Shown: in pieces, positions 1,817-64,000 of the stretch
Layout: every line of letters starts with the position of its first letter
Numbering within the stretch: the stretch's first letter is position 1
Source of the DNA: Deinococcales bacterium
Lineage (GTDB): Bacteria > Deinococcota > Deinococci > Deinococcales > JAAFIG01
Direction: 5' to 3'
Assembly (NCBI GenBank): GCA_043775825.1
Contig: JAYVRX010000071.1
Coordinates: forward strand, 20,399 to 84,398
DNA: 64,000 bases
Program-made: the position numbers and the translations under genes
Notes under the pieces: generated by a model
What the model was told of the DNA's origin: nothing
Database searches by the model: none
What the model saw: only the letters and a program-made list of their open reading frames with translations

Positions 1817-3853
1817 GTGCGCGTCAGAAACGTTTCGGTGGTCGGTCATAACGGCGCAGGTAAAACCAGTTTGGTTGAGGGCTTGCTGTTCAAAGCGGGC
1901 GCTCGAGATCGGTTGGGACGCGTCGAAGATGGTACGACTGCCAGCGATCACACGGAAACCGAGAAAAAACGTGGCATGAGTGTGGCGACCAGCGTACTGA
2001 ATTTGTCTTGGCAAGACACGAGTCTGAATTTATTAGACGCGCCTGGGTACGCCGATTTTGTCGGTGAAATTCGCGGCGCGATGCGGGCGGCAGACTCGAG
2101 TTTGATTGTGGTCAGCGCGACCTCGGGCGTGTCGGTGGGCACGGAACGGGTTTGGAAAACGGCGGATGAGTTCAACATGCCGCGCATTGTGGTGGTTAAC
2201 AAACTTGACCGCGAGCATTCAGATTTTTTTGGGGCGTTGCACAGCGTTCATGACACGCTTTCCATGCAGGCGGTGGCTTCGCACATTCCGATTGGGTCAG
2301 AAAGTAATTTTCGTGGCGTGATAGACCTGCTGTCCGACAAAGCGTATGTTTACACCAACGGAAAGCTCGAGTTGCAAGAGATTCCTGAAGCGCTGGCAGA
2401 ATCCACCCGGGCGCACCGAACCAAATTGATTGAGGCAATTGTCGAAACCAATGAAGGCTTGATGGAACAGTATTTGTCCGACGAACCGCTCGAAGATCAA
2501 GCCGTGAAAAACGCCTTTCTCGAGGCGGTACATCACGGTGAATTGTTCCCGGTTTTGCCGCTCAGCAGCTCGGGTTTGGTTGGTTTAGAACCGCTTCTTA
2601 ATTTGATGGTTGAGGCACTTCGTGCGCCCAAAGATCGTCCCGAAGTGGTTGGCATCGATCAGCAAACTCGAGCGCCGAATATTGACGCGCCGTTTTCGGC
2701 TCGAGTTTGGCGTACCGCGATTGATCCTTTCGTCGGCAAAGTCGCTTATGTGCGCGTTTGGAGCGGGCAGTTGCACCCAGGCGATACGGTCAGAAACTCG
2801 CATTCGGACAAGGATTTCAAACTTGCGCACTTGTACACGCTGCGCGGCAAGGAATTGATCGAAGTTCCAGCTCTCGAGGCGGGCATGATTGGTGCGATCA
2901 CCAAAGTTCCTGACTTGCACACGGGCGATACCTTATGCGATCCGAATCGGCAGATTGATTTTGGACCGCTCGAGCTTCCGGAAGCCATCTCGAGCTTGGC
3001 GATTCATGCGGCGACCCGCTCGGACGAGGACAAACTGGGCACGGCTTTGGGCAAATTGCTCGAGGAAGACCCCACGCTGCATTTGACCCGCAACAATGAA
3101 ACTTCTGAGAGTTTGCTCTCGGGCATGGGTCACACGCACCTCGAGATTGCAGTCGAAAAACTGGGGTTGTACGGCGTGAACATCACCTCGAGTTTGCCCA
3201 AGATTGCGTACCGCGAAACCGTGCTGGCATCGGCGCAAGCCCAGGGTAAATTTAAACGGCAATCTGGTGGTCACGGACAGTACGGCGATTGCTGGTTACG
3301 GATTGAACCATCACATCAAGAATTTGAGTTTGTGTCAGAAGTGATTGGCGGGGTTGTACCGACCAAATACATTCCCAGCATCGAAAAAGGCGTCGAAGAA
3401 GCCAGACATCACGGCGCACTGGCGGGATACCCGTTGCAAAACATCAAAGTGGTTGTTTACGACGGCAGTTACCACGATGTTGACTCCTCGGACATGGCAT
3501 TCAAAACCGCTGGCAGCATTGGGCTGCGCAACGCCGCCGAAAAAGCCAAACCCGCCCTGCTCGAGCCGGTCATGCTGGTCAAAGTTCGCGTTCCAGAACG
3601 CTACACGGGCGATATTTTGGGCGATCTGAACACCCGCCGCGCCAAAGTGCAGGGCATGGAACCCGAGGGCGGGGTCACGGTCATCAGTGCGCTTGTGCCG
3701 CTTGCAGAAGTTCAAAATTATTCACCAGAATTGCACAGCCTGACCAGTGGACGCGGTGTGTACAGCATTAAATTTGATTCTTACGCCCAAGTTCCAGCGT
3801 TGCAAGCCGAAAAGATTATCAATGCTCGAAAAACAGAACTTGCGCACGCCTGA
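1817..3853 (+). CDS. elongation factor G paralog (EF-G2-like translational GTPase)
   Basis: G1 motif [22 protein letters not shown], and EF-G domains II-V by length and pattern. GGAGG lies 8 nt upstream of the GTG at 1817. Confidence 0.8.
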
Positions 3854-13518: not shown

Positions 13519-13980
13519 AGTAAAACCTCGACTCGAGAGGAAGCGTTAAATACGACTAGACAATAGTGTTTTCAGACAAAAGCCCATACTTTAATGATAA
13601 AGTTAGTTTCTTTAACGGTAAAGCTACAGGCTTCAAAAGTATTTGTCAAGCTCCAAAAAGCTGGTGGCAGAGGACTGAAAGTCAACTTGAGAGACTGCCA
13701 GGGCATAAGATTCAAACTCGAGCAACCAGAAATTAGTGCTCGAGCATTACCGATTAATTACAAATTTCAAAATCCATGAAGTTCACAGCCAACTCGAGCT
13801 TGAAGTCTTGCTGCAAATCAGTTCAGCATTTGCACAGCAAAGCCTGAAATCATGGATGCGCGGCAAATACGGCTATTGTTTGGTTTTTGATATCTCAAAC
13901 CCCCAAAGTCGTGCTAGAATTTCGCGCGCGAGCTTGCAGTTGCAAAACCCGTGCCGAAATCTTGAAAGGAAACCTGTTTT

Positions 13981-14057
13981 TGGTGCACCCGACAGAATTC
14001 GAATCTGTGACCTTTGCCTCCGGAGGGCAACGCTCTATCCGGCTGAGCTACGGGTGC
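13981..14057 (-). tRNA. tRNA-Arg (anticodon CCG), CCA encoded
   Basis: The reverse complement folds as GCACCCG TAGCTCAGCCGGATAGAGCG ... CT-CCG-GA ... GATTCGAATCTGT CGGGTGC ACCA. Confidence 0.85.
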
Positions 14058-14197
14058 GAAAAGAACCAGCGATGCGTGAAGCATCTGTTTTGAAGAGTAC
14101 ACTGACAACCCAATAGAGTGCAAGCCAGCTCAAGTCAATACAGCTCAAGTAGGGAATGAAATCAACAACGTGACCAAAAGTCACAGGAGGCAGTAAC

Positions 14198-16201
14198 GTG
14201 AGAGAAACACCGAAGAAATACGCAGCCATTGAGCAATCCGAACCCACATCCAAACGTACCGTCCTGGCACGGGTGGTGCTCGGCGTTGTGGCGGTTGCCC
14301 TGCTGGCGGGCATGATTGTGCAATTTACGCCCAACTTGGCATCCTTAACGGGCGGCGTGCAACGCACCGATGGCAAAACCTTGTTTAGCGTCAATGGCGC
14401 ACCAGTCAACGAACAAGATTATGAACGCACCAAGCAACAAAACCAATTGTTTGGACTTGCCAACGGCGGTACATTTCAACAAGACGTCAATAACCTTCTC
14501 ATGAATCAACTGGTGCTCGTCTCGAGCGCCCGCCAAGATGCCAGCCGTACTAACATCAGCGGCGGCGATGTCAGCAAGTACATCACCGACCTTCGCGCCC
14601 AACGCCAACTGACCAAAGATTCGGATTACACCGCTTTTGTCCAGTCCAACGGTTACAACGACGCCACCTTCCGCGATGCCGTGCGTCAACAATTGCAACT
14701 GACCAAACGCATCGAAGAGATTCAAAAAGGTGTCACCATTTCGGATGCCGAACTGAAATTCTTTTACGACCAAAACAAGAACAACTATAAAGAGACAGAC
14801 CGCATTTTGGCGCGTCAAATTGTGGTGGATAAACAAGCCGATGCCGATGCGATTCAAGCCAGCCTTAAGGCGGGCGAAGCCTTCGATAAACTTGCCAGCC
14901 AAAAAAGCACCGTCGGCAAAGACCAAGACGGCGCATTGGGCGCAAAAACGGGCGAGAAAGTGCCGCAACCGATTGCCGAAATTGCCCTGCCTAAAAACAT
15001 TGCCGATGCCGCGTTTAAGCTCAAGCAAGGCGGCATGACCCCAACCATTGCCGACGGCGGTAAGTTCTACATTGTCAAAGTCGAAAAATTCTTACCTGCG
15101 GGCGTACCAAGCTTTGAAACCTTAAAAGCCAAAATGGACAAAGCCCCTGACGGCAAAGAAACCAATAAGCTGACCGAAGACGCCAAAGCCTTGAAAGGCA
15201 ACGGCGCAATCGAAGCCTGGGTTAAGGGCTTACAACAAAACGCCAAACTCGAGTTCCCAAAAGATTCTAAACTCGATTTTTATGACCCAGCCGTTGCGAC
15301 GGTGGGCAAAACCGACATCAAGCTCTCGGAACTTAACCGCAGCGTCTACAGCAACCAACAAATTCAGCAATTCTTGCAGCAAGGTGCGCAGGGTGCAACC
15401 TTGGTCGAGCAATTTTTCAAACCCCAAAGTCTTGATAACCTGATCAACCAAGAGGTTGCCGTGCAAGCCGCCAAGAAGAGCGGGCAACCATTCTTTGGTG
15501 CGGGCGCTGACATTTTGCAACAAATTCAAAACTATCAATCTAAAGACACCGCCATCACCGACGCGGACGTTAAAAAGTATTACACCGACAACATTGCCAC
15601 TTACACCACCCCAGCCAGCGCCGACATTCAAGAGGCAAGCTTTAAAACCCTTGTGCAAGCCAAGGCATTCCGCGCCGCGTTTATTGGCGGCGGAACGGAT
15701 TTCACCAAAGATGCTGCCAAACAAAAGGGTACTGTCACTGAGACTGGTTCTGTCACGCCAGAGAGCGTTAACCCAGCCTACAAAAAAGTCTTGTTTGACG
15801 CCAAAGCCTTAGCCAAAGCAGGCGCATTGCAAGTCTCTGACGTGATTGAGAACAACAAGCAATTTATCGTGGTCGGCGTGAAATCCTACATTGAAAAGAG
15901 TGTCAAACCATTTAGCGAGGTCGCCGCCGATGCCAAAGAAAAAGCCTTGATTGGCAAACGCGCCGTGGTCGGACAAAAATGGTTGACGGACACAGTCAAA
16001 GCCGCCAAACCCGTCAAAAAATACGACGATGTCCGCAAACAACTCGAGCTTCGTGCCAAGAAAGCCGATGCCGACAAAGCCGCCGAGGATGCCAAACGCA
16101 AGGCAGAACTCGAGAAGCAGAATAAAGCAACGCCAACAACTCCAACAACCACTCCGACTACAACGCCAACCACCCCAGCCGCACCACCAGCTTCAAAATA
16201 A
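14198..16201 (+). CDS. PpiD/SurA-like periplasmic chaperone / peptidyl-prolyl isomerase with Thr-Pro-rich C-terminal tail
   Basis: N-terminal TM anchor, SurA_N-like region, parvulin-like segment (ARQIVV...), C-terminal PTTPTTTPTTTPTTP. Confidence 0.6.
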   Translation: MRETPKKYAAIEQSEPTSKRTVLARVVLGVVAVALLAGMIVQFTPNLASLTGGVQRTDGKTLFSVNGAPVNEQDYERTKQQNQLFGLANGGTFQQDVNNLLMNQLVLVSSARQDASRTNISGGDVSKYITDLRAQRQLTKDSDYTAFVQSNGYNDATFRDAVRQQLQLTKRIEEIQKGVTISDAELKFFYDQNKNNYKETDRILARQIVVDKQADADAIQASLKAGEAFDKLASQKSTVGKDQDGALGAKTGEKVPQPIAEIALPKNIADAAFKLKQGGMTPTIADGGKFYIVKVEKFLPAGVPSFETLKAKMDKAPDGKETNKLTEDAKALKGNGAIEAWVKGLQQNAKLEFPKDSKLDFYDPAVATVGKTDIKLSELNRSVYSNQQIQQFLQQGAQGATLVEQFFKPQSLDNLINQEVAVQAAKKSGQPFFGAGADILQQIQNYQSKDTAITDADVKKYYTDNIATYTTPASADIQEASFKTLVQAKAFRAAFIGGGTDFTKDAAKQKGTVTETGSVTPESVNPAYKKVLFDAKALAKAGALQVSDVIENNKQFIVVGVKSYIEKSVKPFSEVAADAKEKALIGKRAVVGQKWLTDTVKAAKPVKKYDDVRKQLELRAKKADADKAAEDAKRKAELEKQNKATPTTPTTTPTTTPTTPAAPPASK

Positions 16202-38215: not shown

Positions 38216-38321
38216 TGACGGATACTATACTGTACGCGTCTCGAGCAAATTTTTATTCGTGATCAAAATTCAGATCGGGTGGTTTGATGTCAAAACTGGT
38301 TTTACAAAGAGGAAAATTCCA

Positions 38322-39173
38322 ATGCTCCACCTACGCATATTTGTCCTGATATTTCTTGCCATGATTGCCTTTGCTGGCAATTCGCTGCTCTGCCGAATTG
38401 CCCTGAAGCATACCAGCATTGATGCCGCCAGTTTCACCACAATTCGCTTGACCGCTGGCGCAATCATGCTTTGGTTAATCGTGAAAATGCGTCACGACGC
38501 ACCCGCCAGCAAAGGCAATTGGTTTTCGGCACTGGTGTTGTTTATTTACGCGGCAGGGTTTTCTTTCGCTTATGTCAGCCTTCCCGCCTCAACGGGAGCG
38601 CTGTTGCTCTTTGGGGCAGTCCAAGCCACCATGATCGGTCACGGTATTTGGCAAGGCGAGCGTCTGCAAAGACCTCAACTTCTGGGTTTGCTGCTGGCAT
38701 TCGCAGGACTGGTCGGACTGCTGCTGCCAGGTCTGACCGCACCGCCATTGTTCGGTTCTGTACTGATGCTGATTGCTGGAATCGCCTGGGGAATTTATTC
38801 TTTGCGTGGCAAAGGCGCGGGTGATCCGATTCGAGTGACCGCCGGAAATTTCTTGCGAACGATTCCGATTGCCGCAGTTTTAATTGTCATTTTTTGGAAC
38901 AAAATATCTTTGAACAACCCTGGTTTTTGGTACGCGATTGTTTCGGGGGCACTGACCTCAGGAATTGGCTACGCCATTTGGTACAGCGCACTGCCCGCCT
39001 TAAAAGCCACCACCGCCGCCACAGTCCAACTGAGCGTTCCCGTCATTGCCGCTTTGGGTGGCATCGTTTTTCTTGGCGAATCGCTGACTTGGCGCTTAAT
39101 CTTGGCTTCGCTGGCGATTCTTGGTGGGGTGGTGTTGGTGATCTTGGAAAAACAACAAGCTCGAGGTCTTTAA
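38322..39173 (+). CDS. EamA/DMT-family transporter
   Basis: Ten TM helices in two EamA repeats. Start chosen at MLHLRIF, with AGAGGA upstream. Confidence 0.75.
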   Translation: MLHLRIFVLIFLAMIAFAGNSLLCRIALKHTSIDAASFTTIRLTAGAIMLWLIVKMRHDAPASKGNWFSALVLFIYAAGFSFAYVSLPASTGALLLFGAVQATMIGHGIWQGERLQRPQLLGLLLAFAGLVGLLLPGLTAPPLFGSVLMLIAGIAWGIYSLRGKGAGDPIRVTAGNFLRTIPIAAVLIVIFWNKISLNNPGFWYAIVSGALTSGIGYAIWYSALPALKATTAATVQLSVPVIAALGGIVFLGESLTWRLILASLAILGGVVLVILEKQQARGL

Positions 39174-51084: not shown

Positions 51085-52584
51085 ATGCTGACAGGAGAAA
51101 TTCGCAATCAAATAGACCGCGTTTGGGATGCTTTCTGGACGGGCGGCATCAGCAACCCGCTCGAGGTGATCGAACAACTGACCTACCTGCTGTTCATCAA
51201 ACGCCTCGATGACACGCACAAACTCGAGCTGAACAAACTGCAAACCATCGGTGAGGGCAAACTAATCTTCACCGAAGAGCAAGAACAATACCGTTGGAGC
51301 GTCTTTCAAAACGCCGAATCGGGCGATTTGTACAACATTATTGCCAACAAGGTCTTCCCATTCATCCGCGAGATGGGACAAGCCGACACCACCTTTGCGC
51401 GGCACATGAAAGACGCACGCTTTACCCTACCGCCAGAAAAAGCGGCGCTACTGACCAAAGTCGTGGATTTACTGAGCGCCATCAACATGGACAACCGCGA
51501 CACCAAAGGTGACCTGTACGAATATTTACTTTCCAAACTAGCCACCAGCGGACAAAACGGTCAATTTCGCACGCCAAGACACATCATCAAGTTAATCATC
51601 GAACTGACCCAACCAAATCCAGACGACATTATTTGCGACCCAGCCTGCGGCACAGCCGGATTTCTGGTCGCCGCGCTCGAGTACCTGATCGAGCATCACC
51701 GCAACGATATTTACAACAAAAAACGTCAGCATTTTGAAACCAAAATGTTCAACGCCTTCGATTTTGACAGTACTATGCTACGAATCGCCAGCATGAACAT
51801 GATGCTGCACGGCATCGCCAACGCCAACATTCAAAACAAAGACAGCCTCTCAGACACCAACGCCGACGCCAAAGAAGAATACAGCCTGATCCTCGCCAAC
51901 CCGCCGTTCAAAGGCAGTTTGCAATTTGAAACCGCCGCCAAAGACCTGGTGCGCGACTTGGGCATGAAAGCCCCCAAACCCAAAAAAGATGGCAAACCGA
52001 GCGGCGTGCAAGCCAAAACCGAACTGATGTTTTTGGTGTTGTTCTTACGCCTTTTAAAACCAGGTGGACGCTGCGCCGTGATTATCCCCGACGGTGTGCT
52101 GTTCGGCAGCAGCAACGCCCACCAAACCACCCGCAAAACCATCGTCGAAAATCATAAACTCGAGGCAATCATTTCCATGCCGAGCGGCGTTTTTAAACCT
52201 TACGCTGGCGTCAGCACCGCCATCATGATTTTTACCAAAACCGGCATTGGCGGCACGGACAACGTCTGGTTTTACGACATGCGAAGCGATGGTTACAGCC
52301 TGGATGACAAACGCAACCCAACCAACGACAACGACATTCCAGACATTATTCACCGTTACCGCAACCTCGAGGGTGAAACAAACCGTACCCGCACCGATCA
52401 AAGTTTTTTCGTACCAAAACCCGAGATTGCCGCGCAAAATTATGATCTCAGCATCAACCGGTACAAACAAACCGTGCATGAAGTCGTACAGCACGAAGCG
52501 CCACACAAAATCTTGGATGAACTCGAGGGTTTGGAACTCGAGATTGGGCAAGGTTTAAAAGAATTACGGGCGATGCTGACATGA
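51085..52584 (+). CDS. hsdM: type I restriction-modification system methyltransferase subunit
   Basis: HsdM N-terminal domain (IWDAFW-like VWDAFWTGG, YLLFIKRL), SAM motif DPACGTAGFL, catalytic NPPF. Confidence 0.95.
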   Translation: MLTGEIRNQIDRVWDAFWTGGISNPLEVIEQLTYLLFIKRLDDTHKLELNKLQTIGEGKLIFTEEQEQYRWSVFQNAESGDLYNIIANKVFPFIREMGQADTTFARHMKDARFTLPPEKAALLTKVVDLLSAINMDNRDTKGDLYEYLLSKLATSGQNGQFRTPRHIIKLIIELTQPNPDDIICDPACGTAGFLVAALEYLIEHHRNDIYNKKRQHFETKMFNAFDFDSTMLRIASMNMMLHGIANANIQNKDSLSDTNADAKEEYSLILANPPFKGSLQFETAAKDLVRDLGMKAPKPKKDGKPSGVQAKTELMFLVLFLRLLKPGGRCAVIIPDGVLFGSSNAHQTTRKTIVENHKLEAIISMPSGVFKPYAGVSTAIMIFTKTGIGGTDNVWFYDMRSDGYSLDDKRNPTNDNDIPDIIHRYRNLEGETNRTRTDQSFFVPKPEIAAQNYDLSINRYKQTVHEVVQHEAPHKILDELEGLELEIGQGLKELRAMLT

Positions 52585-52808
52585 ACTCGAGAATGGTGAA
52601 ATTAAATAAAAAAATAACAATAAATTCAATTCGGCAGACACTGTCTGCCGAATTCAGACCGATTCAACAAAATCAAATTCCGCAGACACTGTCTGCGGAA
52701 TTCAATAACCTTCAAAACCTCGAGCGCGAAGGGTGCAAGATGAAAAGTAAGACCGTGAAACTCGAGATTGGGCAAGGTTTAAAAGAATTGCGCGGGATGT
52801 TGGCATGA
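52585..52808 (+). mobile_element. 224-bp insert at the hsdM/hsdS junction: twin 27-nt palindromes plus a duplicated hsdM 3' end
   Basis: Palindromes AATTCGGCAGACACTGTCTGCCGAATT (52628-52654) and AATTCCGCAGACACTGTCTGCGGAATT (52676-52702). 52759-52808 repeats 52535-52584 (45/50). A 75-codon ORF spans the insert and is ATGA-coupled at both ends. Confidence 0.6.
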
Positions 52809-54077: not shown

Positions 54078-54449
54078 ATGGCGCGGTTGTACTTGTGTTT
54101 TAACCCGTATGAACCAAAACCAAAACGTGCGCCTTTGCTTTCGGATTGGCTCGAGTTGTGCTTGCATGGGAAGCAAGAATGCGTTAACAAAATGATTGAA
54201 ATGGTCGAAGATTTACACTCAGATGGGGTAGAAAGTCGGTACTTAAAATGGTTCGCGGGTGGTGTTGGCGAACTGAAAAGCCGAACTCCAATTGGTGGCG
54301 CTCGAGTTTACTTTTTTCGGATTGGCGAAGAAGATTTTGCTTTAACCCGCGCAGAATGCAAAAAAGAATCCGTTGCAGATCAGCAATTGATTGATTGGAC
54401 GTTTGAAGTGGCGACGCTGTACAAACAAGATGTGGAGGTGTTCTTATGA
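54078..54449 (+). CDS. RelE/HigB-like toxin of the phage Gp49 (DUF891) type
   Basis: ...GELKSRTPIGGARVYFFRIGEEDFALTRAECKKE.... 4-nt overlap with the downstream HTH gene. Confidence 0.55.
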   Translation: MARLYLCFNPYEPKPKRAPLLSDWLELCLHGKQECVNKMIEMVEDLHSDGVESRYLKWFAGGVGELKSRTPIGGARVYFFRIGEEDFALTRAECKKESVADQQLIDWTFEVATLYKQDVEVFL

Positions 54450-54832
54450 AAAAAGCTTTACCACCTCGAGAAAGTCTGCAATCGAGCATTGCCGAATTAA
54501 AAGCCATGCCTCTCGGAAGTATCATCTCGAGCGGACGTAAAGTGAGGGCAAAATCGGTGAGTGTTACTGACCTGAAACAAGATTTGTCAGATGCCTTGCT
54601 TGCCGAAAGTATTGGTGATTTGCTGCGTGAAGCCCGTTCTCGGCGGGGAATGACGGGTACGGAATTGGCTTCTAAATTGGGTACGAGCAAAGTGCGGGTT
54701 TCGCAACTCGAACATGCAGAATTAAATATTGAATTGGCGACTTTGGCTCGAGTGGCTGGTGTTCTGGGTTACGAGTTGCAGGTGGCTTTTGTGGCTGGTT
54801 CTGAACGTATTTCGCATCAGCACAAGGTTTGA
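54446..54832 (+). CDS. XRE-family HTH antitoxin (HigA-like)
   Basis: LREARSRRGMTGTELASKLGTSKVRVSQLEH. Confidence 0.7.
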   Translation: MKKALPPRESLQSSIAELKAMPLGSIISSGRKVRAKSVSVTDLKQDLSDALLAESIGDLLREARSRRGMTGTELASKLGTSKVRVSQLEHAELNIELATLARVAGVLGYELQVAFVAGSERISHQHKV

Positions 54833-60652: not shown

Positions 60653-61663
60653 ATGAATCTCGAGCAGACCACGACATTACGCCCTAACGCCCTGATAGAC
60701 CGTTTTGGGCGCATCATTCGTGACCTTCGGATTTCGGTCACGCCGCGTTGCAACTATCACTGCACCTATTGCGACCCGCTTGGTCACACGCATCCAGAAC
60801 CCGTTGGCGTTTTAAGTGTCAAAGATGTGGACAATTTTGTTCGCGCCTCGGCGTTGGTCGGCTTGGACGCGGCACGCTTCACGGGCGGCGAACCCTTGCT
60901 GCGCAAAGAACTGCCCGAAATGATGGCAAATGCCGCCGTTACCCCAGGGATCAAAGACATTGCGATCACCACCAACGGCACACTCTTTCGTCGTCGCCAC
61001 AAAGAATTGCTCGAGGCTGGCTTAAATCGCGTCAATATTTCTTTGGACGCCGTAGATCAAAGCGTGTTCGCCAAAGCCACCGGTGGAGGAGACGTAAAAG
61101 TGGTGCTCGACGCGATAAACCTGGCGCTCGAGTTAAACCTGCACCCCGTCAAAATCAACGCCGTCAGCATTCGCGGCATCAACGACCTCGAGATCATCAA
61201 CATGGCAAGACTTTCGCTCGAGAAACCCTTGCATGTGCGGTTTATTGAGTACATGCACTTGAACAACTCGCAACTCGAGGTTTACAAAAACGCCTTTCTA
61301 CCAGGTTCAGAAGCCAAAACCATGATTGAACAAGAATTTGGTACGCTCGAGGTTGTCCCCACCGACCCAAGCAGTCCCGCTCGAGTCTTCAAAATTGCGG
61401 GGTCGCAAGGCAGCATTGGTTTTATCAACCCAATATCAGAACCTTTTTGTGGGGCTTGCTCGAGAATGCGACTGACCGCAGACCGTAAAGTACGGGCGTG
61501 CTTGCTGACAGACCGCGAACTGGATGCTGGCGCGGCGTTTGATTCCGAAAACCCGATTGAAAGCATTATTGATGTGCTGCTCGAGGCGGCGCACCGAAAA
61601 GAACGCATGGGTGATATTTTGCCGAAAATTCGGGAACGCACGATGGTAGCGATAGGTGGGTAA
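60653..61663 (+). CDS. moaA: GTP 3',8-cyclase (molybdenum cofactor biosynthesis protein A)
   Basis: LRISVTPRCNYHCTYC, FTGGEPL, ITTNG, C-terminal CGACSRMRLTADRKVRACL. Confidence 0.9.
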   Translation: MNLEQTTTLRPNALIDRFGRIIRDLRISVTPRCNYHCTYCDPLGHTHPEPVGVLSVKDVDNFVRASALVGLDAARFTGGEPLLRKELPEMMANAAVTPGIKDIAITTNGTLFRRRHKELLEAGLNRVNISLDAVDQSVFAKATGGGDVKVVLDAINLALELNLHPVKINAVSIRGINDLEIINMARLSLEKPLHVRFIEYMHLNNSQLEVYKNAFLPGSEAKTMIEQEFGTLEVVPTDPSSPARVFKIAGSQGSIGFINPISEPFCGACSRMRLTADRKVRACLLTDRELDAGAAFDSENPIESIIDVLLEAAHRKERMGDILPKIRERTMVAIGG

Positions 61664-61693
61664 AAAATAATTGTTTTGTGCTAATTTAAACCC

Positions 61694-61930
61694 ATGACGA
61701 TTGCACTCTCCAAACAACTCGAGACGCTGATCGAAGAAAAAATTGCTTCGGGACGGTATCAATCGGCTTCTGAAGTCATGAGTGAGGCGCTACGGTTGCT
61801 CGAGGAAACCGAGCGTTTTGAAGCCATGAAATTGAATGCGTTACGCCGTGATATTCAAGCGGGTTTGGATAGTGGTGAACCTGTGCCTTTTGACAAAGCA
61901 AGCATTCGTAACCTTGCTCAGAATCGCTAA
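61694..61930 (+). CDS. parD: ParD-family (RHH/CopG) antitoxin
   Basis: ...SGRYQSASEVMSEALRLLEE..., and RRDIQAGLDSGE is typical of ParD/COG3609. Confidence 0.8.
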   Translation: MTIALSKQLETLIEEKIASGRYQSASEVMSEALRLLEETERFEAMKLNALRRDIQAGLDSGEPVPFDKASIRNLAQNR

Positions 61931-61935
61931 CCTAA

Positions 61936-62235
61936 ATGGCTTTTTTCGTTCTGCGTCCTTTGGCACAAGAAGACCTTGCACAAACGTATTCGTACATTTT
62001 GCAAACCAATTTAGAACAAGCCGAACAGTGGCTCGAGGGTGTTGAAAATCAGTGTCAGATTCTGGCAGAAATGCCAACAATGGGACGCGCTCGCCTCGAA
62101 CTTCCTGGTAATGTTCGCAGTTTTGTGTTTGCACGATACGTGATCTTTTACCGACCCAATGCTGACGGTGTTGAAATTGTTCGGGTTTTGCATGGCTCGA
62201 GAGATTTGGGGCAGATTGATTTTGGGAATTCTTGA
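61936..62235 (+). CDS. parE: ParE-family toxin
   Basis: ...A.EDL..TYSYI.......A..W........ILAEMP.MGR......G.VRSF....YVIFYR....GVEIVRVLHGSRDL. Confidence 0.8.
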   Translation: MAFFVLRPLAQEDLAQTYSYILQTNLEQAEQWLEGVENQCQILAEMPTMGRARLELPGNVRSFVFARYVIFYRPNADGVEIVRVLHGSRDLGQIDFGNS

Positions 62236-62243
62236 TGGAATTC

Positions 62244-62359
62244 AAAACCCGATTGAAAGCATTATTGACGTGCTGCTCGAGGCGGCGCACCGAAAAGAAC
62301 GCATGGGGGATATTTTGCCGAAAATTCGGGAACGCACGATGGTAGCGATAGGTGGTTGA
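62244..62359 (+). pseudogene. orphan duplicate of the last 38 codons of moaA
   Basis: 62244-62355 matches 61548-61659 at 110/112 nt. It encodes NPIESIIDVLLEAAHRKERMGDILPKIRERTMVAIGG plus a stop, with no upstream moaA body. Confidence 0.9.
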
Positions 62360-62496
62360 AGCTCGAGAAATTGGATGTTCATATCAAAAATTAAGACTTC
62401 ACTGGAACTGATTGAATCAAACCAGCGTAATGATGAAGTGGTATTTGGTTTACCGCTCATGTGCATGAGCAGATTTAATTTTTTTGGAGGTCTTTG

Positions 62497-63033
62497 ATGT
62501 TTCGCTGGTTCATTAAAATGATTTATGGCTCGACACTTATCACCTTTAATAGTTCTTATAACCTCCCTAAGTCTGTTGTCCGACTCAGAACCGCAACTAG
62601 TACGGCAAATTCTTTTTCGTTACGTCAGTCTTCAGCTACAGGTGTGGTGACGGAACAAAAGGTTACACTTCAACGGAGCATTCCTTTTGTTGGGAATTCG
62701 TTTAAGCCTTATTTTGTGGGTCGTTTTTCTAACAATAACGGTCAGGTTGTTTTGATTGGTCAATTCACCATGCACTGGTATGTCAAAATATTTTTGAGCA
62801 TCTGGTTTGGGTTTCTCAGCTTGATAACTGTTTTAGGTCTGTTCGCCACAATAACAATAAAGCAAAATCAAGCCACAGGTTGGCAATTCGCGCTTTTCTG
62901 CGTTGGGATGTTCGGTGCTGGAACGCTTTTGGTTTGGTCAGGTCAGTGGTTTGCTCGTCAAGATATCGCATGGTTGTCAAGCATTATTCAGAAGGCATTG
63001 TCTGAAGTGAATCTAAACGATGAAAAATCATGA
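62497..63033 (+). CDS. hypothetical membrane protein
   Basis: GGAGG lies 7 nt before the ATG. Two C-terminal TM helices. Visibly AT-richer and has no CTCGAG. Confidence 0.5.
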   Translation: MFRWFIKMIYGSTLITFNSSYNLPKSVVRLRTATSTANSFSLRQSSATGVVTEQKVTLQRSIPFVGNSFKPYFVGRFSNNNGQVVLIGQFTMHWYVKIFLSIWFGFLSLITVLGLFATITIKQNQATGWQFALFCVGMFGAGTLLVWSGQWFARQDIAWLSSIIQKALSEVNLNDEKS

Positions 63034-63094
63034 ATAAACCGTTGGGAACAGTTTAAAACCATCCCCAACAAAATTTAAAAACTCGAGATTTACA
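63033..63094. repeat. duplicate of the rplI stop-codon and terminator region
   Basis: 62 nt matching 63834-63895 with 4 mismatches. Includes a degenerate copy of the terminator hairpin and TTACA (rplI stop plus 2 nt). Confidence 0.85.
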
Positions 63095-63101
63095 ACCAGT
63101 A

Positions 63102-63338
63102 TTAAAGCGCATCCTTTGCATCTGGCTTAATATTCGGAACTGTTTGCAAAGCAGCTAAGAATTTTTCTCGAGAACCTCGCCCAGCGCGTTCTTCAAGAAT
63201 GGTTTGTGTCTCGAGGGCGCTGAGTTTCTCGGCAACGGCTGTGGCGATTAAGGTGTTTAAGCTGATGCCTTCGCTTTCGGAAAGTTTTTTCAGTTCTGTA
63301 TGAACGGTGGTTGGTAAGCGCACGCTGAGGGTTGTCAT
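63102..63338 (-). CDS. ribbon-helix-helix / HicB-like antitoxin
   Basis: MTTLSVRLPTTVHTELKKLSESEGISLNTLIATAVAEKL. 4-nt overlap with the upstream PIN gene. Confidence 0.7.
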   Translation of the reverse strand: MTTLSVRLPTTVHTELKKLSESEGISLNTLIATAVAEKLSALETQTILEERAGRGSREKFLAALQTVPNIKPDAKDAL

Positions 63339-63754
63339 GCTGTACTCCTTTGCATTTGTAAAAATTCTTGAGGTTGGATGGCTCGAATCCCAAATTTTTC
63401 TGAACCCACAAAGTCTTTGATGTTGTATGTCACGATGTACTCGCATTGTGCGTGCCATGCCAATTCGAGCAGGTGGTCATCTTTTGGGTCGCGTATGGCT
63501 GGTCGCCAGGTGTAATACAACCGAGGGCGGTAGGCAATGCTTGCCAGGTAATCGAGGATGTCTTCAATGGCTTGGTGCTCGAGTGGGATTTTCATTTCTG
63601 GGCGCTTAAGGACATCTTCGTACTCGAGAATCAAAGCGGTTGAAAGGGCAAGGGTGAATTTTTGTTCGTACAGGAGCGTTAAAATCTGGTAGGAAGCCCC
63701 TTGGTTTGAACGTAAGCCTGAAACAATGACGTTGGTGTCAAGAACAACGGGCAT
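63335..63754 (-). CDS. PIN-domain toxin (TIGR00305-like), toxin-first operon order
   Basis: MPVVLDTNVIVSGL, ...PKDDHLLELA..., YIVTYNIKDF. Confidence 0.8.
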   Translation of the reverse strand: MPVVLDTNVIVSGLRSNQGASYQILTLLYEQKFTLALSTALILEYEDVLKRPEMKIPLEHQAIEDILDYLASIAYRPRLYYTWRPAIRDPKDDHLLELAWHAQCEYIVTYNIKDFVGSEKFGIRAIQPQEFLQMQRSTA

Positions 63755-63836
63755 AATTTATGGTAGTACAGATGCAACCAAAATTCAAGCTCGAGTCTGA
63801 CAAAACCTCAGCATCTCAACGGCAGTGCTCAACAAT

Positions 63837-63871
63837 AAAACGTTGGGGACAGTTTAAAACCATCCCCAACG
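63837..63871 (-). terminator. rho-independent terminator of rplI
   Basis: On the minus strand: CGTTGGGGA-13 nt loop-TCCCCAACG followed by TTTTATT. Confidence 0.7.
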
Positions 63872-63890
63872 AAATTTTAAAACTCGAGAT

Positions 63891-64000
63891 TTACAGCGCG
63901 GTAATGTTTAACTTCAAAGGAATTGGCACTTCAGGATGTGGTTTGTACACCACTTCGTACTCGCCTAAATCCTTGATGGCTTTGCCCATGTCAATCTTGC
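63891..64000 (-). CDS. rplI: 50S ribosomal protein L9, C-terminal part (gene continues beyond the window)
   Basis: Reverse translation ...KIDMGKAIKDLGEYEVVYKPHPEVPIPLKLNITAL* matches the L9 C-terminal domain pattern. Confidence 0.7.
   Translation of the reverse strand, partial: KIDMGKAIKDLGEYEVVYKPHPEVPIPLKLNITAL

Follow-up and report, generated by a model that had tools for sequence, protein, structure and literature searches.

A PIN-RHH toxin-antitoxin cassette between two copies of the rplI terminator in an uncultured Deinococcales bacterium: a probable insertion with long target duplication

Behind the ribosomal protein gene rplI of an uncultured Deinococcales bacterium, a small toxin-antitoxin (TA) cassette is enclosed by two copies of the rplI gene end and its hairpin. 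Related genomes carry an empty site at this position, the cassette occurs in many other contexts, and neither transposon ends nor a recombinase accompany it. We consider it probable that this 739-bp insert came to lie behind the rplI terminator by recombinase-independent illegitimate recombination, with duplication of 62 to 65 nt of the target. How TA genes move through chromosomes in the absence of transposases and integrases is not well understood, and the rplI locus offers a clean pair of filled and empty sites, what appears to have been a perfect 65-nt duplication, and several sibling toxin families in the same lineage.

Results

The stretch of DNA analyzed here (the window; 64 kb) ends within rplI, which encodes ribosomal protein L9 on the minus strand and is truncated at the window edge (63891-64000; stop codon TAA at 63891-63893). 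The 35 C-terminal codons present in the window match the Pfam family Ribosomal_L9_C (E 9e-6), and the encoded amino acids show 100% identity to the C-termini encoded by full-length L9 genes (147 aa) of three related Deinococcales MAGs (L003, L005 and L006). Self-BLAST agrees with an earlier note on this DNA in finding a direct repeat of 62 nt with 93.5% identity (4 mismatches) between positions 63033-63094 and 63834-63895; the two copies are separated by 739 nt, and a repeat search extends them to 67 nt at 91% identity (63028-63094 and 63829-63895). The proximal copy (T; 63834-63895, minus strand) starts inside the final rplI codons (...GCG CTG TAA) and comprises the last 5 to 8 nt of rplI with the stop codon, a CTCGAG-containing spacer, a hairpin at 63841-63871 and a U-tract. 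The distal copy (T'; 63033-63094, minus strand), with its hairpin at 63039-63071, begins 7 nt past the stop codon of the antitoxin gene. The hairpin of T has a 14-bp stem (-25.8 kcal/mol, z -5.4) and the tail TTTTATTG, that of T' a 15-pair stem (-19.8 kcal/mol, z -3.7) and the U-rich tail TTTATTCA; read on the plus strand, T' is a weak hairpin (z -1.1). By these features T' is terminator-like and a putative terminator for the TA operon.

As the earlier note had assumed, the repeat behaves as a local duplication and not as a dispersed element. With up to 3 mismatches, the 31-nt hairpin core is found at only two places in the window (and at none in 100 shuffles), and when the search covers the window together with 1.24 Mb of related loci, the hairpin still adjoins only rplI or the cassette, even at up to 6 mismatches. 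Contig depth in the bin of T' is 16.7-19.3x compared with about 10x in the flanks, without a multi-copy spike. The uniqueness of T thus refers to sampled sequence, namely the window, the 1.24 Mb of loci and the contig depth. Among JGI metagenome contigs, a collection without this lineage, an exact-pattern scan with the degenerate hairpin gave no match and a protein-guided scan recovered distant PIN genes only. Two independent, single-run Logan contigs (L001 and L002) are 100% identical to window positions 62813-63933 across both repeat copies, which indicates that the junctions in the window are not an assembly artefact.

Between the repeats there are only two genes, both on the rplI strand, and ORF and Pfam evidence agree with the arrangement described before, i.e. 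a toxin-first PIN gene followed by an overlapping RHH-type gene. The earlier description of the cassette as lying directly after the rplI stop codon has to be corrected, because the PIN gene starts 137 nt past this stop, behind the first terminator copy. The PIN gene (63335-63754, minus strand; 139 aa) belongs to the PIN_3/TIGR00305 family (Pfam PIN_3, E 5e-26; TIGR00305, 52 bits at a cut-off of 29). An AlphaFold2 model of the protein reaches a pLDDT of 93, its top Foldseek matches are all PIN, VapC or FitB structures (TM 0.57-0.65), and residues D6, E44, D89, D92 and N111 are invariant across 50 homologues. On the basis of this model and these residues the protein is a predicted RNase toxin with a PIN fold and conserved acidic active-site residues. 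The second gene (63102-63338, minus strand; 78 aa) overlaps the PIN stop codon by 4 nt with its ATG (ATGA). Its profile matches are all below threshold (HicB C-terminal RHH, E 4e-4; DUF6290; RelB-like; YlcI), and a single-sequence model shows an extended N-terminus, helices at residues 11-24 and 28-51, and a disordered C-terminus; from these matches and this model we assign it as a putative RHH antitoxin. A partner of 78 to 79 aa is located behind the PIN gene in every context examined. Sequence searches of the PDB with the PIN and the RHH protein yielded no matches.

Upstream of the PIN gene the insert contains two short non-coding blocks. The block immediately 5' of the PIN ATG (63755-63789, minus strand; 35 nt, CTTGAATTTTGGTTGCATCTGTACTACCATAAATT) includes a -35-like TTGAAT, a -10-like TACCAT and an imperfect palindrome (GGTTGCA..TACTACC), and it is the sole non-coding block kept across all nine aligned contexts of the cassette. 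A strict sigma-70 scan made no call on this block, which from its conservation and motifs might act as a promoter/operator; the PIN transcript is probably leaderless. With a conserved putative promoter/operator of its own, the cassette need not rely on read-through from rplI. The remaining 44 nt (63790-63833, minus strand), referred to here as the leader, end in a CTCGAG and have a 90% match in the related locus L083, and occur neither in the remaining cassette contexts nor in any other locus. At its 3' end, the convergent ORF beyond T' shares a few short words with the leader, which had suggested homology between the two; this idea was set aside, since L083 has the same leader next to another distal flank. 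Terminal inverted repeats were not detected at the ends of the insert (end-to-end inverted score 18, shuffle maximum 21).

The convergent ORF on the distal side (ORF178; 62497-63033, plus strand) encodes a hypothetical membrane-like protein of 178 aa, and its stop codon abuts T'. It has no match in Pfam or NCBIfam, just 13 homologues among 5.8 billion proteins, and is missing from L003, L005 and L006. Its region has a GC content of 41% and is one of five gaps of more than 700 nt in the window that are free of CTCGAG; ORF178 was probably itself acquired. The CTCGAG palindrome is hyper-abundant in this lineage and marks several repeat boundaries, and a literature search found no paper describing it as a 'highly iterated palindrome'. 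As junction microhomology at the rplI insertion it was rejected, because the sites do not coincide with the repeat ends but are set 7-10 nt inward; such a role does fit some of the sibling insertions described below.

A comparison of filled and empty sites behind rplI, which the earlier note had called for, was possible among the relatives. L003, L005 and L006 carry rplI followed by a single T, lack the cassette and differ in the DNA beyond. L083, in which rpsR-rplI precedes the insertion, is a second filled site with an insert of 736 nt and repeats of 65 nt that are one mismatch from perfect, T and T' being equal throughout the 62-nt core. L083 and L003 form a formal pair of filled and empty sites: L083 segments 15-891 and 1627-2070 both cover L003 positions 3100-3166 (reverse-complement coordinates), so that both L083 repeats (825-891 and 1627-1693) align to this one L003 copy. 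Identity is 91% on the rpsR-rplI side and 73% on the distal side, which holds a MITE-like repeat and the start of ORF306. A tract of four T occurs in both copies of the filled genomes compared with five T in all three empty genomes, which supports a local derivation of the second copy from the target. The cassettes of the window and of L083 share 94.0% identity, while T' differs at 5 of 62 positions and T at 1 of 62. This pattern suggests that the duplication was perfect at the outset and that T' of the window has since drifted at a roughly neutral rate, with T being constrained.

The filled allele has been found with three different distal flanks, namely ORF178 in the window, the MITE-like repeat in L083, and a gene end similar to that of L006 in run X3, and the interval between moaA and rplI is different in each genome examined. 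In two metagenomes that contain this strain, contig depth is 75-114x for rplI and about 10x for the cassette contig; judged by contig depth, presence of the cassette is polymorphic in the population.

The unit of promoter block, PIN gene and RHH gene occurs in at least eight different contexts. In L087 the unit lies between 27-nt repeats that represent the end of the local upstream gene including its stop codon; where flanking repeats are present at other cassette sites they copy the local target, and no T-like sequence accompanied the cassette elsewhere. In five of the eight contexts (L082, L088, L090, L091 and L093) flanking repeats did not exceed the shuffle level. Hence either this module also arrives by routes other than long target duplication, or old repeats decay. 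The absence of a recombinase, claimed in the earlier note for the insert, extends to the 13 kb upstream (window 51-64 kb) and to four other cassette contexts. No phage match was detected, and plasmid homologues are only about 42% identical, with no carrier identified.

Similar insertions with other cargo are present in the lineage. A ParDE pair at moaA, a neighbour to which the earlier note had likened the rplI architecture, is indeed bordered by repeats, here a 117-nt duplication of moaA coding sequence, and has an empty site of its own in L094. A ParE-like insertion in L084 shows repeats of 44-51 nt, a MazEF-like insertion in L017 repeats of 49 nt, and a non-coding insert of 171 nt at hsdM repeats of 53 nt, so that the duplications range from 27 to 117 nt across all cases.

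Discussion

The structure of the rplI locus is best explained by an illegitimate recombination event that would have placed 739 bp of DNA just past the intrinsic terminator of rplI. The inserted module would be a self-sufficient type II TA system, in which a promoter/operator belonging to the module precedes the genes of a PIN RNase toxin and of an RHH antitoxin coupled to it in translation, and its arrival would have duplicated 62 to 65 nt of the target, comprising the rplI end, the spacer, the hairpin and the U-tract. By this event rplI would have retained its stop codon and terminator in the form of T, and the cassette, which seems to have brought no terminator of its own, would have gained T', shielding the convergent downstream gene. 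Such a duplication would thus leave a highly expressed ribosomal operon with its terminator and at the same time supply one to the newcomer. One conceivable route is capture of the fragment where two broken ends were staggered or overlapped, another a template switch with re-entry upstream. Because the insertion junctions lack clear microhomology and the leader has no match outside L083 to indicate a donor, the data favour no particular break-repair route. A pair of direct repeats at a distance of 800 bp would be expected to invite deletion, but addiction, in which the toxin outlasts the antitoxin, might penalize loss of the cassette, and this would explain why TA and restriction-modification genes are typical cargo.

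The most serious competing explanation is that a ready-made block of rplI, T, cassette and T' was taken up from a related strain through natural transformation and integrated by homologous recombination, with a long arm in rplI and a short one in the 62-nt T', in which case the duplication would double as a portable homology arm. This addresses the proximate route and not the origin of the structure, and we regard it as rather unlikely. The three distal flanks of the filled allele call either for later turnover beyond T' or for a spread of the block by homologous recombination, and two of them are also found with empty alleles (the MITE-like flank of L083 in L003, and that of X3 in L006). In addition, the GTTCCC of T' in the window is the allele present in T of L003 and L005, and most reported cases of long target duplication are from naturally competent species (PMC2853133). 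However, turnover accounts equally well for the differing flanks because the moaA-rplI interval varies in every genome examined, the four-T allele occurs in both filled copies and in none of the empty genomes, the divergence of T' is consistent with vertical drift, and an arm of 62 nt is short for RecA-dependent exchange.

Far less probable is site-specific recombination, in which T would be an attC- or att-like site used by an integron-type or other recombinase in trans, with PIN-RHH as a gene cassette. An imperfect palindrome does lie on both sides of the cassette, and another insertion struck T in L003. In the distant relative L084, moreover, rplI is followed by a co-oriented array of a nucleotidyltransferase gene, a ParE-like pair and PIN-RHH, in which a short hairpin-containing element recurs three times. 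Nevertheless, the repeats represent the local target in each case (the rplI end here, another gene end in L087, moaA coding sequence for ParDE), T contains the rplI stop codon and does not accompany the cassette elsewhere, the cassette has a putative promoter of its own, and no integrase was found in any of the five neighbourhoods examined. T also reads GTTGGGG...CCCCAAC on both strands, an order opposite to that of attC, whose core sites are RYYYAAC...GTTRRRY.

A chance insertion between two pre-existing dispersed terminator- or REP-like repeats is slightly less credible still and already largely refuted. Dispersed hairpin repeats do exist in this lineage, such as a palindrome flanked by CTCGAG that occurs three times in L045 and the MITE-like element of L003, L083 and L006, but the empty genomes carry one copy at the rplI site, the end of the rplI coding sequence with its stop codon is part of the repeat, and no further copy exists within the sampled 1.3 Mb. 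That assembly or binning joined rplI and a TA contig via a common repeat deserves practically no weight, for although many strains co-exist in the source metagenome, the junctions are identical in the window, the two single-run Logan contigs and an independent ENA assembly of another sample.

If illegitimate recombination with target duplication is indeed what took place at rplI, long target duplication would be extended from restriction-modification genes to TA genes and to a non-coding insert. This range of cargo speaks against cleavage by restriction enzymes as the shared cause and in favour of repair or recombination by the host. A more far-reaching idea, which we put forward as speculation and hold to be doubtful, is that small addiction cassettes are inserted at gene ends in this lineage by a general pathway that needs no recombinase and duplicates tens of bases of the target, perhaps tied to the repair of fragmented multi-copy chromosomes and to CTCGAG. 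TA pairs would in that case represent a distinct kind of minimal mobile element, and long target duplication, a phenomenon known for 25 years, would be independent of restriction enzymes.

Comparison with known systems

Among mobile elements that duplicate their target, insertion sequences of the IS1634 type (attributed to Vilei and co-workers, 1999) reportedly give long and variable target duplications. Variable duplications of tens to hundreds of bp are thus a shared feature; however, in IS1634-type elements an IS-encoded transposase acts on inverted ends, and the rplI insert has neither a transposase nor terminal inverted repeats. A transposon or MITE was rejected in general, as terminal inverted repeats are absent and the duplications vary in length instead of being short and fixed. 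Integron cassettes, among them the TA cassettes of chromosomal superintegrons, resemble the rplI insert in being small, co-oriented, often TA modules that are each followed by an imperfect palindrome, and the array in L084 likewise extends beyond a fixed point. They differ in that the repeats at rplI copy the local target rather than a cassette-borne site, in the presence of a separate putative promoter, in the order of the core sites and in the absence of an integrase from the neighbourhoods examined.

With respect to its cargo, the cassette is most similar to VapBC, type II systems that pair a PIN toxin with an RHH, AbrB or other DNA-binding antitoxin, with which it shares the PIN fold and acidic residues, overlapping genes, a small putative DNA-binding partner and a promoter palindrome. 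In contrast to canonical vapBC, in which the antitoxin gene comes first, the toxin gene is first here, and the PIN protein belongs to the PIN_3/TIGR00305 branch without a solved close relative by sequence.

[quoted passage not shown] In these cases repeats of more than 30 bp both align to a single copy in an empty genome, and inserts of less than 20 kb lack transposase, integrase and inverted ends, the repeat being unique in the genome (PMC2853133). The repeat frequently extends into the 3' end of the gene before it (by 15 bp and 2 bp in two Haemophilus cases), the hosts reported include Thermus, which shares its phylum with the bacterium studied here, and DNA breakage by a restriction enzyme was suggested as the common cause, all described cargo being restriction-modification genes (PMC2853133). 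We applied the criteria of Furuta 2010, i.e. a duplication of more than 30 bp, an insert of less than 20 kb and an empty relative in which both flanks are alignable (PMC2853133). The rplI locus agrees in its empty relative, to whose single copy both repeats of L083 align, its repeats of 62-67 nt (65 nt in L083), its insert of 739 nt (736 nt in L083), its lack of mobility genes and inverted ends, and its predicted addiction-type cargo. A search of the accessible literature found no paper reporting such an insertion for toxin-antitoxin genes. The cargo at rplI is a PIN/RHH pair without restriction-modification genes, and that of the sibling insertions is ParDE, MazEF-like, ParE-like or non-coding, none of which cuts DNA at a recognition site. 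Because its cargo is not restriction-modification, the rplI case is a variant of the long target duplication class rather than a plain member of it.

The rplI site and its gene pair

Self-comparison of the window confirmed the direct repeat of the earlier note: positions 63033-63094 and 63834-63895 agree over 62 nt with four mismatches and lie 739 nt apart, and a repeat finder extends the match to 67 nt at 91% identity. The minus strand reads, in order, the end of rplI (stop codon TAA at 63891-63893), the proximal copy T (63834-63895), a 44-nt leader, a 35-nt promoter-like block, a PIN gene (63754-63335), a 78-aa gene (63338-63102) whose ATG overlaps the PIN stop codon as ATGA, seven bases, and the distal copy T' (63033-63094), beyond which a convergent 178-aa ORF has its stop codon. 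The 35 rplI codons within the window match Pfam Ribosomal_L9_C and are identical to the C-terminal end of full-length L9 genes (147 aa) from relatives. With up to three mismatches allowed, the 31-nt hairpin core has only these two sites in 64 kb, and 100 shuffles gave no match. An assembly artefact is ruled out by two single-run Logan contigs, each spanning T and T', that are 100% identical to window positions 62813-63933.

The toxin gene product matches Pfam PIN_3 (E 5e-26) and, above cut-off, NCBIfam TIGR00305; residues D6, E44, D89, D92 and N111 are invariant among 50 homologues, and the model built from these reaches a pLDDT of 93, with PIN/VapC/FitB proteins as every top structural match. 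For the 78-aa partner all RHH-type matches (HicB C-terminal domain, DUF6290, RelB-like, YlcI) are sub-threshold, and a single-sequence model, in which the N-terminus is extended, two helices follow and the tail is disordered, is compatible with a ribbon-helix-helix monomer. Because of these matches and models, and because a 78-79-aa partner follows the PIN gene in all retrieved contexts, the proposed toxin-first PIN/RHH pair with overlapping genes on the rplI strand is accepted, the antitoxin fold being less certain than that of the toxin.

Both repeat copies are called terminator-like on the rplI strand, T with -25.8 kcal/mol, z -5.4 and the tail UUUUAUUG, T' with -19.8 kcal/mol, z -3.7 and the tail UUUAUUCA. 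On the opposite strand the hairpin of T' is weak (z -1.1). From these values taken together, T' is a plausible candidate terminator of the toxin-antitoxin transcript.

Filled and empty sites in related genomes

By a MoaA scan the window belongs to uncultured Deinococcales known from metagenome-assembled genomes of glacier-fed streams and rivers. Each of the closest genomes has different DNA between moaA and rplI, two convergent core genes: an AT-rich 306-aa ORF together with a MITE-like repeat at locus L003, ParDE with a 701-aa repeat protein at L005, and ParD alone with a three-gene system at L006. The PIN/RHH pair and the 178-aa ORF are absent from these three intervals, and the comparison of empty sites downstream of rplI found a single T without cassette in all three, window similarity ending with the U-tract. 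Contig L083 carries the closest homologue of PIN (95% identical), in the order rpsR-rplI-T-PIN-RHH-T', with a 65-nt repeat (one mismatch) and the same 801-nt spacing as in the window. L083 15-891 and 1627-2070 both cover the reverse-complemented L003 3100-3166, and the distal flank is common to both loci; as judged from these aligned sequences, this is the formal signature of insertion with long target duplication.

In the empty-site genome L003 (3913-4233) the rplI terminator has been struck by a separate event: a 222-nt MITE-like element with inverted ends has the complete terminator on one side and, on the other, an incomplete duplicate (about 35-40 nt) of its distal half. The core of this element also occurs in L083, and in L006 at a second place. 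At L006 9279-12228 the three-gene block that fills the moaA-rplI interval (327, 82 and 574 aa), whose 574-aa protein has only a weak ATPase match (TrlF family, E 3e-4), may be a defence system of undescribed type.

A generic dispersed repeat would be expected away from the site, but across the window and 1.24 Mb of fetched loci the hairpin was found only beside rplI or the cassette (up to six substitutions allowed). Together with the tract of four T shared by both copies of the filled genomes, as against five in the three empty genomes, this upholds a local duplication. The 62-nt cores of T and T' are identical in L083. The cassettes of the window and of L083 share 94.0% identity, and between the two T' differs at 5 of 62 positions versus 1 of 62 for T, a pattern that fits one ancestral duplication, perfect at first, with T under constraint as the rplI terminator and T' drifting in the window's strain. 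A private loop base common to both L083 copies suggests gene conversion between them.

In the two metagenomes with the exact strain, rplI-end contigs reach 75-114x coverage, those of the PIN/RHH, ParDE and 178-aa-ORF segments 7-11x, and several contigs connect T to other sequences; the cassette is thus carried by roughly one-tenth of the co-occurring population. A contig of a third run has T'-RHH-PIN beside an L006-like distal flank, and the filled allele is therefore known with three different distal flanks, which points either to later turnover beyond T' or to movement of the T-cassette-T' block between strains by homologous recombination.

Structure and contexts of the cassette

In nine aligned contexts conservation begins exactly 35 nt before the PIN ATG and ends at the RHH stop codon. 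Within these 35 nt lie a -35-like TTGnnn, a palindrome (for example GGTAGCA..TGCTACC) and a -10-like TACCAT, the last so near the ATG that the transcript is probably leaderless. Besides following rplI, the cassette follows a lyxose-isomerase-like gene (L082) and a 103-aa gene (L087), adjoins a PadR gene (L088), a glycosyltransferase (L090) and a nitroreductase (L091), and belongs, near rplI in L084, to an array that also has a nucleotidyltransferase and a ParE-like pair. Flanking repeats are present at the rplI site; in L087 a 27-nt repeat (81% identity) consists of the upstream gene's last bases and stop codon, in L084 the flank is a third copy of a local element, and none were found in the other five contexts. 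Where present, these repeats are, by their sequence, local target DNA and not a cassette-borne site.

The array at L084 4554-6720 (also in L085 and L086) comes from a more distant relative (PIN 76% identical); it is co-oriented after rplI, in the order Polbeta-type nucleotidyltransferase, 71-aa and ParE-like pair, PIN-RHH. A short element with TGGCTCGAGCCA recurs past each unit, and contigs vary in the DNA beyond the array. Such cassettes seem to have been gathered more than once downstream of rplI.

In the 64 kb there are 427 copies of the palindrome CTCGAG (e.g. 63082-63087 and 63883-63888) versus about 10 expected, a 27-fold excess relative to base composition; the median distance between sites is 116 nt, with a weak preference for G before and C after; related Deinococcales and Trueperaceae loci (L003-L018, L082-L090) have 2-9.5 per kb, and a literature search found no paper on it as an iterated palindrome. 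Its density in the cassette equals that of the genome (6.8 vs 6.7 per kb), by which measure the cassette has long been part of this gene pool. By contrast in sequence, a CTCGAG-free stretch of 720 nt and 41% GC holds the neighbouring 178-aa ORF; such stretches (13793-16043, 38240-39160, 62362-63082) are likely foreign DNA.

Sibling insertions in the lineage

As the earlier note had it, the moaA-ParDE case has the same architecture. The ParD/ParE cassette (61694-62235, within 61548-62360) directly follows moaA and lies between 117-nt copies of that gene's 3' end (97%); L094 provides an empty site with identical flanks on both sides. ParDE is also absent from L003, L004, L007, L008 and L066 and present in L005; in L006 and a contig of metagenome run X4 a 322-nt deletion has removed ParE, leaving ParD only. 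Further repeats flank the ParE-like pair of L084 (44-51 nt), a MazF/PemK pair in L017 (49 nt) and an HTH-containing two-gene module in L090 (37 nt). At 52532-52808 a type I restriction-modification system has, between hsdM and hsdS, a non-coding insert of 171 nt that contains two perfect 27-nt hairpins of nearly the same sequence. On either side of it stands a copy of the hsdM 3' end (53 nt, 89%), which preserves the stop codon of hsdM as well as the start of hsdS that overlaps it. In most siblings the downstream repeat starts 2-9 nt past the cargo's last stop codon. The sample is biased to toxin-antitoxin-rich loci and no frequency is claimed.

Two other regions deserve mention. Between hsdS and hsdR (54078-54832) a 123-aa ORF without family match overlaps a 128-aa HTH_3 gene and may form another toxin-first cassette inside the restriction-modification operon. 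Upstream of moaA, L014 (1016-3917) has a densely packed island that encodes HTH proteins, a DUF6932 protein and a PIN fragment. An element of roughly 70 nt is present there four times and part of the PIN gene is repeated over 149 nt, which looks like nested insertions of the same kind.

In several siblings the duplicated segment starts and/or ends at CTCGAG (L090 1786-1821/2875-2911, L017 12440-12488/13085-13133, L084 5341-5391/5900-5950, window 52532-52584/52756-52808). By a rough post hoc estimate on a small sample, the palindrome lies within 5 nt of about 8 of 14 repeat boundaries versus roughly 2 expected, which suggests that it serves as junction microhomology or break point; this does not apply to the rplI, moaA or L087 cases.

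Mechanism and comparison with known systems

Each of three alternatives, integron cassette, transposon or MITE, and integration by an integrase, is contradicted in a defining feature. The cassette has no terminal inverted repeats, and in agreement with the earlier note no recombinase was found in the 13 kb upstream in the window or near the cassette elsewhere. We consider it quite likely that the rplI-site cassette is a genuine illegitimate insertion with long, local target duplication, and the earlier observation and its interpretation (repeat, gene pair, empty sites, local duplication) are supported overall. The architecture shared by a PIN RNase pair and a non-coding insert argues that the duplication stems from a host process and not from the cargo. 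Broken chromosome copies with staggered or overlapping ends might capture a fragment between them, or a template switch might re-enter the target upstream of its exit point; no convincing microhomology was found at the junctions. Toxin addiction might guard T-cassette-T' from repeat-mediated deletion, which would account for addiction modules being the usual cargo.

The mechanistically unexplained class of insertion with long target duplication was established from restriction-modification genes of Helicobacter, Haemophilus, Neisseria, Thermus and others, and its authors suggested breakage by restriction enzymes as the common cause (PMC2853133). Our literature search found no report of it with toxin-antitoxin genes. 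The rplI site, for which this uncultured lineage offers good natural filled and empty alleles, shows, as judged on the window and 1.24 Mb of related loci, the published architecture and departs from it solely in its cargo: the toxin-antitoxin cargo is new, while the mode of insertion is already known.
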